A stretch of 31,811 nucleotides of DNA from a virus: UHGV virus genome UHGV-0116366; one strand, 5' to 3'. Under the pieces are notes generated by a model. That model ran no database searches, had not been told where the DNA came from, and worked only from the letters and a program-made list of their open reading frames with translations. Below, in pieces: positions 3,052-8,637 of this stretch; within the stretch, counting starts at the first letter, position 1, and the number at the start of each line of letters is the position of its first letter. The position numbers and the translations under genes were made by a program.

Positions 3052-3678
3052 TTAAAGCTCGTACTGAACGCCTTTGACAACGCCGATGATCAGGCAATTA
3101 CCGTTAATTGAAATGTTTGGATAGCGTGGATTTAAGGGAACTAAGAACTTTTGAGGCCCATCGATGACAAGTTTTTTTACAGTAGCCTCGTTTGTCCCAT
3201 CAAGCCTGGCTACGACTATCTTTCCATGAAGTGGCTCTGCATCTGGATCTACTATGACTGTTGCCCCTTCAGGGATTGTCGGGAGGCCATTAGGGTTTGT
3301 CATCGAATCACCTTTAACCTCCAATGCAAAGGAGCTATCCCCTATGCGGAGTGATGTCTCTATCCACTTATCTACTTCGCTGAAAACTTCTGCTGCTTTA
3401 CATTCTGTAAACTGTCCAGCCTGAACCCAGGATATCACCGGAATCCTTCGCATCTTGGTTATCAGATTGCCTTCAAATTCAGTGCCATAAAGTATGTAAT
3501 CAATTGATGTGTTGAAATACTTTGCAAGTTTCGCAAGTGACTCGCCTCCTGGCACATTAACGTCTTTTTCCCAATACCCAACCGCCACATCACTAACACC
3601 GCAGAACTTACCCAGTTCTTTCTGCGAGGTTTTGGTTATGCGCCTGAGAGCTTTGATGCGCTGACCGACAGTTTCCAT
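3052..3678 (-). CDS. cI: CI-type phage repressor (N-terminal HTH_XRE, C-terminal S24 LexA-like peptidase)
   Basis: N-terminus QRIKALRRITKTSQKELGKFCGVSDVAVGYWEKDVNVP (HTH). C-terminal domain has GDSM (Ser nucleophile) and VKK (Lys) as in LexA/CI autopeptidases. Divergent from cro. Confidence 0.9.
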   Translation of the reverse strand: METVGQRIKALRRITKTSQKELGKFCGVSDVAVGYWEKDVNVPGGESLAKLAKYFNTSIDYILYGTEFEGNLITKMRRIPVISWVQAGQFTECKAAEVFSEVDKWIETSLRIGDSSFALEVKGDSMTNPNGLPTIPEGATVIVDPDAEPLHGKIVVARLDGTNEATVKKLVIDGPQKFLVPLNPRYPNISINGNCLIIGVVKGVQYEL

Positions 3679-3780: not shown

Positions 3781-4008
3781 ATGACAACCGATGATATTGA
3801 AAACTACTTCGGCAGTACTGAGAAGGTTGCCGAATTTTTTGGAATCACAAGCGAGGCTGTTTACCAGTGGCGTAATAGAACTGGTCGCCTTATCCCAAAA
3901 GGGCGTGCAGCTGAAGCAGCATATCGAACCGGGGGGAAATTGGTTTTTCATCCCGACCTTTACGAAAAGCGTAGCGATGCTTCAGTAAAACTCAAACCAC
4001 AGGAATAA
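3781..4008 (+). CDS. cro: Cro-like repressor
   Basis: 75-aa protein divergent from cI with a strong RBS; FGSTEKVAEFFGITSEAVYQWRN resembles Cro/YdaS-type HTH. Confidence 0.75.
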   Translation: MTTDDIENYFGSTEKVAEFFGITSEAVYQWRNRTGRLIPKGRAAEAAYRTGGKLVFHPDLYEKRSDASVKLKPQE

Positions 4009-4018
4009 GGGGGGAGCT

Positions 4019-4570
4019 GTGGGTAACGAACCTATTTGGAAAGTCGAACGTCAGCCAGCCTGGCTGGTGGCGGCGATAAAAAAAACGATCACCGATCTTC
4101 CTGGTGGTTATGCCGAGGCGGCGGAATGGTTGGGCGTGACAGAGAACGCATTGTTCAACCGCCTTCGTGTTGACGGCGACCAAATCTTCCCGCTGGGCTG
4201 GGCAATGGTTTTACAACGTGCTGGTGGTTCAACTCATATTGCTGATGCCGTTGCGCGCCATTCTCAGGGCGTATTTGTACCGCTGGCAGACGTTGATGAT
4301 CTGGATAACGCCGATATAAACCAGCGCCTGATGGAGTCCATTGAATGGATAGGTCGTCATTCTAATTTTGTACGTAAAGCCACGGCTGATGGGGTAATTG
4401 ACGCAGATGAGCGTGCTCAGATTGAGGAAAACAGCTATCAGGTTATCGCGAAGTTCCAGGAGCACGTAACGCTTCTTTATCGAGTTTTTTGTGTCGCTGA
4501 AAAGAGTGACGCCCGCGAGTGTGCAGCTCCGGGCGCCTTGGCGAACAACTCTTCGAGTATGGAGAAATAA
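4019..4570 (+). CDS. CII-like regulatory protein (phage 186 CP76 type)
   Basis: 183-aa ORF directly after cro, GTG start. Length and position match the e14 ymfL / CP76 family; call is by recollection of the family, not alignment. Confidence 0.55.
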   Translation: MGNEPIWKVERQPAWLVAAIKKTITDLPGGYAEAAEWLGVTENALFNRLRVDGDQIFPLGWAMVLQRAGGSTHIADAVARHSQGVFVPLADVDDLDNADINQRLMESIEWIGRHSNFVRKATADGVIDADERAQIEENSYQVIAKFQEHVTLLYRVFCVAEKSDARECAAPGALANNSSSMEK

Positions 4571-4742
4571 TCCGCATGAGCAGTTTAACGGCTTTTAACC
4601 GTCTACCGCAACTAAGGATGATCCCGGTTTCGGGTACTCCGTTGTTTCGGTATGAACGCAGATTATCAAACCGCTGGGTTCCGTGTAACCACAGTAGGGC
4701 GGTTTCAATTGTGGGGGTCTACAACCGGAGGGCAAAACGCCT

Positions 4743-4922
4743 GTGCGCGAACTTAACCGAAGGTTCAAAGACCACCGCGGAGTGCCAGTCCGTGTTATCC
4801 GCTGGGAGCCAGAAACACAGCGCGTTATCTATCTGCGTGATGGCTACCCACACGAATGCTTCAGCCCACTTGAGCATTTCAGGCAAAAGTTCAGGGAGAT
4901 AACGGACGATCATGAGCACTAA
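4743..4922 (+). CDS. small hypothetical protein (frame uncertain)
   Basis: Frame 0 reads VRELNRRFKDHRGVPVRVIRWEPETQRVIYLRDGYPHECFSPLEHFRQKFREITDDHEH, which is protein-like. GTG start preceded by GGAGG 11 nt upstream. The overlapping 127-aa ORF at 4519-4902 has a Ser/Ala/Arg/Cys-rich composition and looks wrong-frame. Confidence 0.35.
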   Translation: MRELNRRFKDHRGVPVRVIRWEPETQRVIYLRDGYPHECFSPLEHFRQKFREITDDHEH

Positions 4923-5769
4923 ATTAACCGGCTACGTATGGGATGGTTGCGCGGCGTCGGGCATGAAGTTGTCTAGTGTCGCGATCATGGCTCGCCTTGC
5001 TGATTTCAGCAGCGATGAGGGGGTGTGCTGGCCGTCTATTGAAACTATTGCTCGCCAGCTTGGCGCAGGGCCGAGCACTATCAGAACGGCAATCGCTAAG
5101 CTTGAAAAAGATGGCTGGCTCACGCGTACACAGCGCCGTAATGGTAACCGTAATGCGTCGAACGTTTACCGCCTGAATGTGGCGAAACTTCAGGCTGCCG
5201 CATTTTCTCAACTGTCAGATTCTGACACGTCAAAATCTGACGCATCAAAATTTGACACCTCAAAAACTGACCCGTCGAAATCTGGCAAAATCGGCGGTTT
5301 TGACCCGTCAGAATCTGGCGGGGATCCGTCAGTAAAATCAACACAAGATCCACAAGTAACTTCAAAACCCTCTTGTCCGGTTGCGGCGCAACCAGACCCT
5401 GAAGTTGTGATTACCGACCAGGCGATTTTGGTTCTGACCCATTTGAACCAGATCAGCGGATCCCGGTATCAGAAATCCAAAACATCCCTGGAGAATATCC
5501 GCGCCCGACTGCGTGAGGGATACAGCGTTGCAGACCTGCAACTGGTTATCGACCTGAAGCATGAGCACTGGCACGAGAACGACGAGCAATACCAGTACAT
5601 GCGGCCGGAAACGCTTTTTGGTCCGAAGAAATTCGAGAGCTATCTGCAAAGCGCTACCCGCTGGGATCAGAAGGGACGGCCTAAACGCGCTGATTGGGGT
5701 GCGAAAAAGCGCGATGTGATGGCTTTTGGTCCGGTTGATACAACGATTCCTGCGGGGTTCAGAGGATGA
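4912..5769 (+). CDS. phage replication initiator (N-terminal HTH, C-terminal conserved phage replication domain)
   Basis: N-terminal winged-HTH-like region (SIETIARQLGAGPSTIRTAIAKLEKDGWLTR). C-terminal block (LENIRARLREGYSVADLQLVIDLKHEHWHENDEQYQYMRPETLFGPKKFESYLQ) is typical of lambdoid replication-organiser proteins. Iterons lie inside the gene. Confidence 0.8.
   Translation: MSTKLTGYVWDGCAASGMKLSSVAIMARLADFSSDEGVCWPSIETIARQLGAGPSTIRTAIAKLEKDGWLTRTQRRNGNRNASNVYRLNVAKLQAAAFSQLSDSDTSKSDASKFDTSKTDPSKSGKIGGFDPSESGGDPSVKSTQDPQVTSKPSCPVAAQPDPEVVITDQAILVLTHLNQISGSRYQKSKTSLENIRARLREGYSVADLQLVIDLKHEHWHENDEQYQYMRPETLFGPKKFESYLQSATRWDQKGRPKRADWGAKKRDVMAFGPVDTTIPAGFRG
5215..5335. repeat. origin-like iteron array inside the replication gene (about six copies of GTCARAWTCTGAC-like 12-13-mers)
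   Basis: tcagattctgac / gtcaaaatctgac / atcaaaatttgac / ctcaaaaactgac / gtcgaaatctggc / gtcagaatctggc are readable in tandem; they encode the low-complexity SDSDTSKSDASKFDTSKTDPSKSG linker. Confidence 0.6.
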
Positions 5770-6647
5770 CGTTAAACAAATATTGCCAGGCGCTGGCGGC
5801 ATTACGTAGCCAACCAGCCCACGAATTGAAAGAAGTTGGCGATCAGTGGCGGACGCCGGATCTGCTTTTTTGGGGGATCAACGCGCTATTTGGTCCATTA
5901 GTTCTGGACTTGTTTGCAGACGACGACAACGCGAAGTGCCCGGCATGGTACACCGCCGAAGATAACGCGCTGACACAGAACTGGTCTGAACGTCTGGATG
6001 AACTGGGCGGAGCGGCGTTTGCCAACCCTCCATATAGCCGCTCGCAGTATCACGACAGGCAGGCGATCACGGGTATGACACACATCATGAATCACACCAT
6101 GGACATGCGTGAAAGAGGTGGTCGCTATATTTACCTGGTGAAGTCTGCCACAAGTGAAACATGGTGGCCGGAAGATGCCGATCACATCATGTTTATTCGT
6201 GGTCGTATTGGGTTCGATCTGCCTGTGTGGTTTGTACCTGCTGACGAAAAACAGAAACCCACCAGCGCGTTTTTTGCCGGTGCCATAGCTGTATTCGATA
6301 AGTCATGGCGTGGTGAGCGGTTCAGCTATATCAACCGCACTGAGTTGGAGGCAAAAGGTCGGGCATTTATGGCGCTGGCTCAATTCGCTGTTGGTAAAGA
6401 GCAAACAATTGCAACGCTGGCAGCCCAGGAACCAGCAGCACCACCAAAAACTGAGTCACGAATCTGGCCTCTCGAAGTTGGTCTGGTGTTTAACCAAGTG
6501 GAAGGCGCTGATGTATTGAGCGAGGCCCAGCAGAACAAACTGAAAGCCAACATCAATCAACTCTGGCTGGAGCGGACGGCCACCAGCGAAATTATCGCAA
6601 TTGCGCGTGGCCTTGTTGGCAGCATGCAGGGGGTAACCCATGCGTGA
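5766..6647 (+). CDS. DNA N6-adenine methyltransferase (phage Dam-like) with C-terminal extension
   Basis: FANPPYS motif (NPPY catalytic motif of amino-MTases) in the N-terminal ~170 aa; C-terminal ~120 aa of unknown function. Confidence 0.75.
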   Translation: MTLNKYCQALAALRSQPAHELKEVGDQWRTPDLLFWGINALFGPLVLDLFADDDNAKCPAWYTAEDNALTQNWSERLDELGGAAFANPPYSRSQYHDRQAITGMTHIMNHTMDMRERGGRYIYLVKSATSETWWPEDADHIMFIRGRIGFDLPVWFVPADEKQKPTSAFFAGAIAVFDKSWRGERFSYINRTELEAKGRAFMALAQFAVGKEQTIATLAAQEPAAPPKTESRIWPLEVGLVFNQVEGADVLSEAQQNKLKANINQLWLERTATSEIIAIARGLVGSMQGVTHA

Positions 6648-8637
6648 GATTATCGTTGATAACTTTGCTGGTGGCGGTGGCGCATCAACGGGTATTGAAC
6701 TGGCAATCGGGCGCAGCGTGGATATTGCGATCAACCACGACGAAAACGCCATTGCGATGCACAAGACGAACCACCCGGACACACTGCATTATTGTGAATC
6801 CGTATTTGACGTGGATCCGGTAGCCGCCACCGGAGGTAATCCTGTCGGACTGGCATGGTTTAGCCCGGACTGCCGACACTTCTCGAAGGCAAAAGGCGCA
6901 AAGCCTGTGAAAAAAGAGATACGCGGTCTGGCCTGGATTGTTCTGCGTTGGGCACTGGCGAAGCGACCGCGCGTGATGATGCTGGAGAACGTGGAAGAGT
7001 TCAAAACGTGGGGACCGTTAATTGACATCCCGCCTAAACCTGATTTGCCGGAAGCCCTTTTGGCGGATTTTATTGGCCCGGTTTACCCTGGAAATAGTCG
7101 CCCAGACCCTGCCCGCACTGGAGAAACATTCAATGCATTTGTCGGCATGCTGTCCACTGGCATTCCTGCTGATCACCCGGCACTGGCTGAGGTTTGTGAG
7201 TTTCTGTCTATTGTAAGAGGTAGCGAGCAGGCGAAAAAGCTGGTGGATGGGCTCGGATATGATGTTGATTATCGTGAACTGCGCGCGTGTGATTACGGCG
7301 CGCCGACGATCCGCAAACGCTTCTTCATGGTTATGCGCTGCGATGGCTGCCCAATCCAGTGGCCTACTGTTACCCATGGGGATCCTAAGTCTCTGGAGGT
7401 GCAGAGCGGCAGGCTGATGCCATGGCGTACCGCTGCGGAATGTATCGACTGGAATGTTCCGGCCCTGTCCATCTTCGACCGCAAAAAACCGCTGGCGGAG
7501 AACACTTTGAAGCGGATCGCGCGCGGCATACAGCGCTTTGTTATCGAAAGTGCGTCGCCGTTTATCGTGAAGTGCAACCACACCACGACCAAAGGAAAAT
7601 ACGACTGTTTCCGTGGGCAGGAGTTGAGTGAGCCGCTGCAGACCATTACGAAAACCCATGGCTACGCGTTAGCCGTGCCACACCTGACAAAATTCCGCAC
7701 TGGCGCAACCGGGCAGCCCGTTACCGAGCCTGTCCCGACGGTAACCGCTGGCACATCAAAACGTCCAGGTGGGAATGGGCATGCACTCGGGATTGTTGAG
7801 GCTGCACTGACACCATTCCTGGCGGGTAATGGTGGTAGTGAATACCAGGCTAAACCACGCCCGCTGGATAAACCTGCTCATACCATTCTGAAGCAATCCC
7901 GCGCCTGTCTTGTTGCGCCAGTGATAGCCCGCCAGTTTGGGGCCAGCGTCGGCCATCGGGCAGACGAACCGAGCGCAACCATCACCGCTGGCGGTGGCGG
8001 TAAATCTCAACTGGTAACGCCTACGCTGATCCAGATGGGTTATGGCGAACGTCCAGGACAAGAACCGCGTGTGCTGCGACTGGATAACCCGCTGGGGACC
8101 GTTACTGCAGGTGGAAATAAATTCGCGACGGTGAGCGCGTTCCTGGCAAAACACTACGGCGGTAACTATACGGGGCCGGGTGTCAGTATGGATGAACCCG
8201 CGCACTCAGTGACCACTGTCGACCATCATGCAGTAGTTGCCTCTCATCTGGTGAAACTGCGAGGAACATGCCGCGACGGGCAGTGCCTTGATGTGCCCAT
8301 GCCAACAATCACCGCTGGTGGCCAACACGTGGGTGAGGTACGCACATTTCTCGAGACGTATTGCGGGGAAAGTGACGATGAATGGCTGGTAACGATCGAT
8401 GGGGTTAAATACCAGATCGTTGATATCGGAATGCGCATGTTGCAGCCGCATGAACTCTACAAAGCGCAGGGCTTCCCCGATGGATACGTTATTGATCAGG
8501 ACTACCGTGGAAATCGCTATGCAAAAGATAAGCAGGTAGCCCGCTGCGGTAATGCGGTACCACCACCATTCGCCAGGGCGCTGGTGGAGGCAAATCTTCC
8601 GGAACTGTGTGCAGTGCAACAGCAGGAGGTGGCATGA
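6640..8637 (+). CDS. DNA (cytosine-5) methyltransferase with unusually long variable region, possibly multispecific
   Basis: Motif I FAGGGG, PC-like motif FSPDCRHFS, motif VI MMLENV, motif VIII YGAPTIRKRFFMV, C-terminal CGNAVPPP. About 360 aa separate motif VIII from motif IX/X and contain four copies of a (T/V)(I/V)TAG(G/T) motif. Confidence 0.85.
   Translation: MREIIVDNFAGGGGASTGIELAIGRSVDIAINHDENAIAMHKTNHPDTLHYCESVFDVDPVAATGGNPVGLAWFSPDCRHFSKAKGAKPVKKEIRGLAWIVLRWALAKRPRVMMLENVEEFKTWGPLIDIPPKPDLPEALLADFIGPVYPGNSRPDPARTGETFNAFVGMLSTGIPADHPALAEVCEFLSIVRGSEQAKKLVDGLGYDVDYRELRACDYGAPTIRKRFFMVMRCDGCPIQWPTVTHGDPKSLEVQSGRLMPWRTAAECIDWNVPALSIFDRKKPLAENTLKRIARGIQRFVIESASPFIVKCNHTTTKGKYDCFRGQELSEPLQTITKTHGYALAVPHLTKFRTGATGQPVTEPVPTVTAGTSKRPGGNGHALGIVEAALTPFLAGNGGSEYQAKPRPLDKPAHTILKQSRACLVAPVIARQFGASVGHRADEPSATITAGGGGKSQLVTPTLIQMGYGERPGQEPRVLRLDNPLGTVTAGGNKFATVSAFLAKHYGGNYTGPGVSMDEPAHSVTTVDHHAVVASHLVKLRGTCRDGQCLDVPMPTITAGGQHVGEVRTFLETYCGESDDEWLVTIDGVKYQIVDIGMRMLQPHELYKAQGFPDGYVIDQDYRGNRYAKDKQVARCGNAVPPPFARALVEANLPELCAVQQQEVA

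Follow-up and report, generated by a model that had tools for sequence, protein, structure and literature searches.

The question raised by this locus is whether a cluster of short palindromes within the coding sequence of a phage replication initiator also serves as the origin at which that initiator acts. The locus was analyzed in its full setting, a 31.8-kb stretch of DNA (31,811 nucleotides; UHGV virus genome UHGV-0116366), hereafter referred to as the window. The window as a whole corresponds to an integrated SfV/SfII/SfIV-type temperate prophage, and its relevant features are listed in Table 1. The initiator gene is placed in the early-right operon, behind the cI/cro/cII-like genes, and its stop codon is overlapped by the start of the phage Dam gene. 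The Dcm-like gene is followed by RusA, Ant, and DUF968, and beyond DUF968 lie lysis, terminase, portal, capsid, tail sheath, tape measure, and baseplate genes.

Table 1. Features of the initiator region and of the surrounding prophage genes (positions are those of the window)
Feature	Position	Strand	Sequence	Remarks and basis
Integrase gene	1033-2229	-
cI-like repressor gene	3052-3678	-
cro	3781-4008
cII-like gene	4019-4570
DUF4222-type small gene	between the cII-like gene and the initiator gene
Replication initiator gene, 285 aa	4912-5769	+		ORF, translation, Pfam, PHROG replication initiation families
Winged-helix DNA-binding N-domain, residues 1-98	4912-5205	+		HTH_36/MarR/GntR/DnaD_N matches
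Iterons 1-5, 13-bp palindromes	5214-5286	strandless		exact 15-bp phasing; starts 5214, 5229, 5244, 5259, 5274
Iteron 1	5214-5226		GTCAGATTCTGAC	perfect palindrome
Iteron 2	5229-5241		GTCAAAATCTGAC
Iteron 3	5244-5256		ATCAAAATTTGAC
Iteron 4	5259-5271		CTCAAAAACTGAC
Iteron 5	5274-5286		GTCGAAATCTGGC
Lone right half-site	5298-5304	strandless	TTTTGAC
Iteron 6	5307-5319		GTCAGAATCTGGC	adjoins GATC boxes; nearly invariant across genera
GATC box A, first 24-bp A-rich repeat	5323-5346		GATCCGTCAGTAAAATCAACACAA	Dam site 5323-5326
GATC box B, second 24-bp A-rich repeat	5347-5370		GATCCACAAGTAACTTCAAAACCC	Dam site 5347-5350
Mosaic (recombination) junction, N-domain+origin module / C-domain module	5352-5363			best matches of the two gene parts differ
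Phg_2220_C helical C-domain, residues 174-246	5431-5649	+		Pfam 1.3e-23 (cut-off 27 bits); TIGR02220 1.5e-18
C-terminal tail resembling the E. coli DnaT flexible tail	5704-5766	+	KKRDVMAFGPVDTTIPAGFRG
Dam (N6-adenine) methyltransferase, phage gene	5766-6647	+		Pfam Dam 6.4e-45
C-5 cytosine methyltransferase-like (Dcm-type) gene, 665 aa	6640-8637	+		Pfam DNA_methylase 4e-20; PHROG DNA methyltransferase

The initiator gene and its repeat element

The initiator matched the PHROG "replication initiation protein" and "O-like" families with E values of 2e-71 and 2.7e-49, respectively, and matches to the PHROG replication-initiator/"O-like" families overall ranged from 1e-49 to 1e-80. Pfam Phage_rep_O, the lambda O family, was absent from the initiator at E <= 0.01, and only the PHROG "O-like" groupings matched. 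Pfam HTH_36 was found at residues 23-70 (4.5e-12), with weaker matches of the N-domain to MarR, GntR, DnaD_N, and RP-C. The best PDB sequence matches of the N-domain, all weak, were MarR-family chains of the winged-helix type. The N-domain is presumed to be the iteron reader. The C-domain scored 66.9 bits against NCBIfam TIGR02220 (cut-off, 66.65 bits), and by its Phg_2220_C profile match the initiator ranks with the DnaD-like replisome-organiser proteins. An AlphaFold (AF2) model, built from a shallow alignment and of low confidence (mean pLDDT, 52.5), consisted of a helix-rich winged N-domain with the topology H-H-H-H-beta-beta, a disordered linker at residues 101-158 (pLDDT, 31-35), a helical region at residues 163-254, and a disordered tail; we make no fold claim for the C-domain from it. 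Proteins identical or 98-99% identical to the initiator came from genomes of the Citrobacter freundii group and of Salmonella, where their public names are "conserved phage C-terminal domain-containing protein" or "GntR family transcriptional regulator."

Six 13-bp palindromes with the consensus GTCARAWTCTGAC occupy positions 5214-5319. The original prediction, which called for about six imperfect palindromes inside the initiator ORF, was correct in number and place. It had described them as tandem units of 12-13 bp, but the 13-bp units are not head to tail; they recur every 15 bp, and the sixth starts 33 bp beyond the start of the fifth. The element also runs past the predicted end at 5335, to about 5370, as two GATC boxes. 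The repeats do encode a low-complexity linker, as had been proposed. Each 15-bp unit is equivalent to five codons and yields an xSKSD-like pentapeptide (LSDSD TSKSD ASKFD TSKTD PSKSG). The repeats fall at residues 101-136, between HTH_36 and Phg_2220_C, in the linker predicted to be disordered.

Tandem Repeats Finder reported a 15-bp period across 5221-5284, and a repeat finder returned six in-register copies and nine inverted pairs. The 11-bp core TCARAWNYTGA had 10 strand-matches in the window (0.89 expected), a number reached in none of 100 shuffles, and seven of the 10 fell within 5215-5270. Scanning with this core motif revealed no second comparable repeat cluster anywhere in the 31.8-kb window. 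The same tool, applied to lambda as a positive control, found the four annotated iterons with their spacing of 20, 24, and 23 bp.

The original prediction also called for a check of the sequence just downstream for an AT-rich unwinding region. The AT enrichment there is modest, with a GC content of 40% at 5326-5372 compared with 50% for the window, and 35% in the lowest 40-bp window; the segment is A-rich and invariant. Local GC is lowest in the region of GATC box A (0.35), where the AT skew is +0.5, and box A is a candidate unwinding element. No DnaA box within one mismatch was present in or near the element, and positions 4500-6000 hold a single one-mismatch site, at 5700. A scan with the IHF consensus detected no site in or near the element. 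Promoter and terminator scans yielded a single weak promoter-like match, which lies within the iterons and does not exceed what shuffled sequences give, and Rfam returned only far-sub-threshold miRNA hairpin models, which reflect the palindromes. A plasmid iteron origin of the Rep_3 type was considered and rejected: such origins have DnaA boxes and direct repeats that are 17-22 bp long and spaced by about two helical turns, and the units here are 13-bp palindromes at 15 bp without a DnaA box.

Conservation of the repeats and their covariation with the N-domain

Conservation was analyzed for 80 loci whose products have an N-domain related to this one (63-99% identical). These loci were taken from one-genome-per-species collections, and phage records were added to them. 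The genera sampled include Citrobacter, Kluyvera, Enterobacter, Yersinia, Pantoea, Rahnella, Proteus, and Providencia. Absence of the repeats from orthologous initiators, or variation without relation to initiator specificity, had been named beforehand as evidence against an origin. The array was instead kept in nearly all 80 loci, always with 15-bp phasing and in three to nine copies, and its synonymous positions were constrained. A frequency matrix of the 15-bp units was discarded as circular, because its units had been picked by DNA similarity, and it was replaced by tests in which codons were picked by the encoded amino acid only. By this measure, 76 distinct linkers differed strongly from the rest of the same genes: TCA and TCT accounted for 83% of serine codons in linkers and 27% elsewhere, AAA for 97.5% and 63% of lysine codons, and TTT for 90% and 32% of phenylalanine codons, respectively. 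Linker residues swap among K/E/N/D and among S/F/P/T, while TCA, third-position T, and GA stay fixed. The bases RAWTY at the iteron centre were conserved as strongly as the arms, and the spacer bases were variable. Some of the uniform codon use among the tandem units could, however, stem from repeat amplification by slippage.

The distal block reads TTTTGAC-CC-GTCAGAATCTGG-nGGn-GATCCGTCAGTAAAwTCAAAACAw-GATCCaTCAGaTAAAAAAC, that is, the last iteron followed by two GATC boxes; Proteus and Providencia relatives have three GATC boxes. Synonymous diversity was 0.11 in this block and 0.57 in the N-domain (Mann-Whitney p 2.8e-8, with p-values overstated since the loci are phylogenetically related). 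Ten of its 15 codons had no synonymous variant in 43-68 loci, whereas two glycine codons in its midst varied (0.63 and 0.36). Codons without a synonymous variant include the TTT phenylalanine codon of the half-site (66 of 66 loci), the GAA and TCT codons of iteron 6 (64 and 68 loci, respectively), and the GAT, TCA, GTA, and TCA codons of box A (57-68 loci). Invariant codons beside drifting glycine codons indicate old divergence with base-by-base purifying selection rather than a recent sweep. The C-terminal tail of the same proteins had abundant synonymous change under conserved amino acids, and this contrast with the distal block indicates that the method separates protein-level from DNA-level constraint. 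The gene is a clear-cut case of a coding sequence that is constrained both as protein and as DNA.

Related initiators were also compared for iteron sequence, as the original prediction had suggested, and the repeats were found to change with the N-domain family. Distant N-domain families have other repeats at the same place: GGTCAAATTCCGACC in Vibrio phage Va_PF430-3, GGGGCAGGAGCTGMCC in SI5 and Stx2a_F451, and GTGCAnnAnATTCAC in ST64B. Salmonella phage 118970_sal3, whose C-domain DNA is 91% identical to that of the window and whose N-domain is unrelated, carries five to six CCGCAAnCnAGATTGCGG units with a 23-bp period. In these comparisons, the repeat sequence is specific to the N-domain type and travels with the N-domain. 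Within the family, a change of the recognition helix from STVRTAI to STVITAI pairs with a change of the repeat from GTCA..TGAC to TTCA..TGAA. This covariation is suggestive, and it is imperfect, as phiP27 is mixed. Data published for a phage "P27" (PMC7466680) were not transferred to phiP27, because that phage has a lambda-type O and differs from the phiP27 whose genome record was analyzed here.

The gene is a mosaic. SfIV/SfII-type phages, along with 1850 of the 5426 complete E. coli genomes, match its nucleotides 1-440 at about 83%, and Salmonella phage 118970_sal3 matches nucleotides 453-858 at 91%. About one in three complete E. coli genomes carries the N-domain and origin module, as do many other Enterobacterales. 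The junction lies 33-44 bp past the last iteron, compared with 39-47 bp for the annotated hybrid junctions of lambda.

The origin reading and its alternatives

We consider positions 5214-5370, within the linker-coding part of the initiator gene, to be probably the vegetative replication origin of this SfV/SfII-like prophage, with origin activity assigned by comparison. The closest parallel is the lambda ori in gene O, together with its Stx-phage variants, where dyad-symmetric initiator-binding repeats also lie in mid-gene (PMC7466680). The original prediction had drawn this analogy, and the relative position within the linker-coding part bears it out (gene nucleotides 303-408 of 858 here and 349-433 of 900 for the iterons of lambda O). 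In both cases, the repeats code for a linker that joins a DNA-binding N-domain to a C-domain specific for its partner, a region of lower GC and a hybrid junction lie just downstream, and the gene comes after cII in the early-right operon. The two systems differ in unit length and phasing (13 bp at 15 bp here, 18-19 bp at 20-24 bp in lambda), in the number of sites (six versus four), and in the downstream segment, which is A-rich with two invariant GATC sites here and strongly AT-rich in lambda. The initiator here also falls outside Phage_rep_O, and no P gene accompanies it. The locus follows the lambda design but uses an initiator of another family, phases its sites at an unusual 15 bp, has GATC in its putative opening boxes, and encodes no phage loader. 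Apart from spacing and extent, the original prediction holds in observation and interpretation alike. As the core design is the classical lambda one, the surprise is moderate. Features that count against the origin reading are a putative opening region that is only modestly AT-rich and lacks DnaA and IHF sites, and 15-bp phasing, which is unusual for iterons.

Origin repeats inside coding sequence are also known from the replisome-organiser genes of Gram-positive phages (SPP1 G38P/oriL, lactococcal phages, and the TP901-1 rep genes). Those phages have Firmicutes hosts and usually also encode a helicase loader, a helicase, or both. They share with the present system a DnaD-like/Phg_2220_C-type C-domain on an origin-binding protein, but the sequences are unrelated beyond the C-domain family. 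The oriC 13-mers and P1 oriR have tandem A/T-biased repeats, each starting with a Dam site, beside an initiator-binding array; the units here differ in being 24 bp long, in having another sequence, and in lacking DnaA boxes. In the literature searched, which covered Phg_2220_C, solo initiators, the origin of SfV, and phage proteins resembling DnaT, no account of this origin was found.

In the mechanism that we propose, each of the six palindromes would be bound by a winged-helix dimer of the N-domain. With sites recurring every 15 bp, one dimer would be rotated by about 154 degrees around the helix from the next and would thus face almost the opposite way, so that a filled array should wrap or twist the DNA (writhe). 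The resulting strain could open the adjoining pair of 24-bp A-rich GATC boxes. The C-domain and its DnaT-like tail would then bring in the host DnaB-DnaC helicase complex, because no phage loader is encoded. Transcription of the operon itself would run through the origin, as in lambda. More speculatively, the pair of invariant Dam sites where opening would occur may tie re-initiation to methylation state, and the downstream phage Dam may speed re-methylation and hence escape from SeqA. By analogy with oriC and P1 oriR, the GATC pair and the adjacent Dam gene suggest methylation-dependent control. An origin recognized here would supply a defined cis element and a specificity determinant for many SfV/SfII-type prophages, including serotype-converting Shigella phages.

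Four other explanations were weighed, which even taken together are unlikely, and each of which fits the dyad symmetry, the third-position invariance, the covariation with the N-domain, and the invariant GATC boxes less well. The array might be an initiator-binding operator or copy-control site, working as an autoregulatory roadblock or by handcuffing, with the true origin elsewhere in the phage. What the data establish is indeed a conserved cis-acting protein-binding array rather than unwinding, the flank is modestly AT-rich, and a weak promoter-like match overlaps the iterons. We nevertheless regard such an operator as improbable, since the proven lambda origin has a matching position, module structure, and mosaic junction, a simple operator leaves the invariant A-rich GATC boxes beside the array without an explanation, and the window has no other comparable repeat cluster. 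It is more improbable still that the 60-bp block owes its conservation mainly to use as a homologous-recombination linker between modules, with no role in replication. The mosaic junction does lie inside the block, and the same block joins several different C-domains, but use in recombination by itself does not hold single third positions invariant while neighbouring glycine third positions drift, nor does it account for palindromic 13-mers that covary with the N-domain. Recombination and origin function are compatible if exchange happens at the origin.

The repeats could instead act as RNA or as a single strand, either in an mRNA hairpin that tunes initiator translation or stability or in a hairpin of unwound DNA. 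Folded as RNA, 5205-5375 reaches -48.6 kcal/mol (z = -4.9), with iterons 1-2 pairing with an inverted distal copy. Any set of palindromic repeats can inter-pair in this way, however, and a single 13-mer allows a stem of only 4 bp. The would-be loop bases RAWTY are as conserved as the arms, the spacers are unpaired and variable, copy number ranges from three to nine, the unstructured GATC boxes are also invariant, and no Rfam family came near threshold. We therefore give structured RNA or single-stranded DNA a very small chance. The slightest chance of all goes to a purely protein-level explanation, in which the stretch is no more than a low-complexity Ser/Asp/Lys linker and the palindromes in the DNA are incidental to repeat expansion. 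In its favour, each unit spans exactly five codons, copy number varies as slippage predicts, and the linker is predicted to be disordered. Against this, charge and polarity change (K/E, S/F/P) while specific bases, including third positions, stay; dyad symmetry is meaningless for a protein; and the non-repetitive distal codons are also without synonymous variation.

Helicase loading and the C-terminal tail

The helicase-recruitment step of the proposed origin is the weakest link of the mechanism, because the function of the DnaT tail is itself unresolved. No DnaC, DnaB, P, or primase-helicase gene was found after the initiator or in a survey of the 31.8-kb window, which agrees with the original prediction that two methyltransferases (Dam and Dcm-type), and no loader, follow the initiator. 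Loader-less modules were reportedly catalogued by Weigel and Seitz (2006). Among related initiators, the type of C-terminus predicts the neighbouring partner genes. A loader or helicase gene was present in the next three ORFs for none of about 49 initiators ending in ..IPxGFRG or ..LPENxGFRS and for none of 23 with a longer Phg_2220_C-plus-extension C-terminus. Initiators with other C-termini were followed by DnaC-like (+DnaB) or lambda-P genes in 12 of 12 cases.

The last residues of the initiator resemble those of E. coli DnaT. A pairwise BLASTP comparison of the tail with the last 21 residues of DnaT gave an E value of 6e-5, with both segments at the exact C-termini, and the pattern ..KRDV..D..IPPGFRG, common to DnaT and the initiator, is conserved in about 49 related initiators. 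The NCBIfam DnaT model matched residues 253-285 weakly (E 0.084). Alignment of the C-domain with DnaT by hhalign (E 1e-5) covered the 21 tail residues only, and the DnaT DNA-binding domain PF17948 had no match in the phage C-domain, compared with 3.7e-21 for DnaT itself. Homology of the Phg_2220_C and DnaT domains is not claimed, as the profile comparison aligns the tail alone. The similarity is a shared motif and not DnaT family membership.

Published work describes DnaT as linking PriA-PriB to DnaB-DnaC and its 20-residue tail as flexible, with the role of the tail left unresolved there (PMC5778457; PMC4132743). The likeness to DnaT extends over the last ~21 residues and to the placement of a flexible extreme C-terminal tail after a small helical domain, as described for DnaT in PMC5778457; the initiator differs in having no N-terminal trimerisation/PriB-binding region of the DnaT kind. 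We put forward, as a hypothesis only, that solo initiators may use the tail to engage the helicase-loading factors of the host. A wider proposal is possible but doubtful, namely that loader-less Enterobacterales initiators hijack helicase loading by the host through a copied flexible tail of DnaT, which would dock DnaB-DnaC or another primosome partner directly at the phage origin without PriA/PriB, and that the GATC pair makes re-initiation dependent on the phage Dam. If true, tail docking would assign a function to the unexplained tail of DnaT. The DnaT-like tail offers a testable idea for host helicase capture by loader-less phages and is the most promising lead from this locus. The same tail is carried by ST64B and 118970_sal3, which have other N-domains.

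Initiator C-terminus and helicase-loader genes

The final 21 residues of the initiator (KKRDVMAFGPVDTTIPAGFRG) matched E. coli DnaT at its flexible C-terminal tail. A total of 84 related initiators were compared for their C-termini and for the genes that follow them. All 12 initiators lacking both a DnaT-like tail and a long alternative C-terminus had a loader or helicase gene behind them, and none of the ~72 with either C-terminus did.

Features in and around the initiator gene and in related loci (L093 and L002)
Feature	Location	Description
ORF upstream of the initiator, mechanically called	window 4519-4902	PHROG match
Mosaic junction inside the initiator gene	window 5352-5363	DNA likeness differs on the two sides
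Initiator C-terminal tail	window 5704-5766	likeness to E. coli DnaT tail
Cytosine-methylase-like gene	window 6640-8637	Pfam DNA_methylase match
Truncated initiator copy, annotated pseudogene	L093:2502-3966	E. coli K-12 MG1655, CPS-53/KpLE1 prophage
437-aa initiator, annotated "putative transcriptional activator"	L002:2934-4247	Salmonella phage 118970_sal3

Adjacent genes and GATC sites

An N6-adenine methyltransferase was nearly always encoded behind these initiators, in the window (5766-6647) as in related loci; it was a Dam enzyme or, in some loci, an MT-A70 protein. The GAT codons of the two origin GATC sites were invariant (68 of 68 and 63 of 63 loci), and methylation is possibly linked to initiation. 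At 665 aa, the cytosine-methylase-like protein is of unusual length. Since its Pfam match is broken into three stretches, the sequence suggests a large insertion or an additional domain. A small PerC-like gene (PF06069) very often lies between solo initiator and methyltransferase in related loci (L001, L014, L018, and others), where it overlaps the initiator stop codon by ATGA; it is missing from the window.

The ORF upstream of the initiator, as mechanically called, shares 52 nt with the cII-like gene. Its PHROG match begins at residue 20, which makes the ATG at 4577 the probable true start. Its relatives, which often precede the initiator, are annotated as DUF4222 in E. coli genomes.

Annotation and relatives of the initiator

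Public annotation names the product of 4912-5769 a "GntR family transcriptional regulator" or a "conserved phage C-terminal domain-containing protein"; "replication initiator" was not among the names seen for near-identical proteins. The "putative transcriptional activator" of 118970_sal3 is a replication initiator. Its N-domain is unrelated to that of the window initiator, and the two share the C-domain and GFRG motif. The 118970_sal3 gene carries its own palindromic repeats, with a 23-bp period (L002, 3292-3447), and reads through past GFRG into a PerC-like domain, which other phages encode as a gene of its own. The K-12 prophage retains an N-terminally truncated initiator copy; behind it lie yfdN (PerC-like) and yfdM, a truncated Dam gene. 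The pseudogene matches gene nt 234-440, including the iteron region and missing most of the DNA-binding domain.

Folding and mosaicism of the probable origin region

As single-stranded RNA, window 5205-5375 was predicted to fold far better than shuffled sequences (z = -4.9), with the distal inverted copy at 5298-5319 pairing with iterons 1-2. The same modeled hairpin could form in unwound DNA. At the mosaic junction, upstream DNA resembled SfIV/SfII-type phages and one third of E. coli genomes, and downstream DNA resembled Salmonella phage 118970_sal3. Annotated hybrid junctions in lambda O occupy the same relative position.
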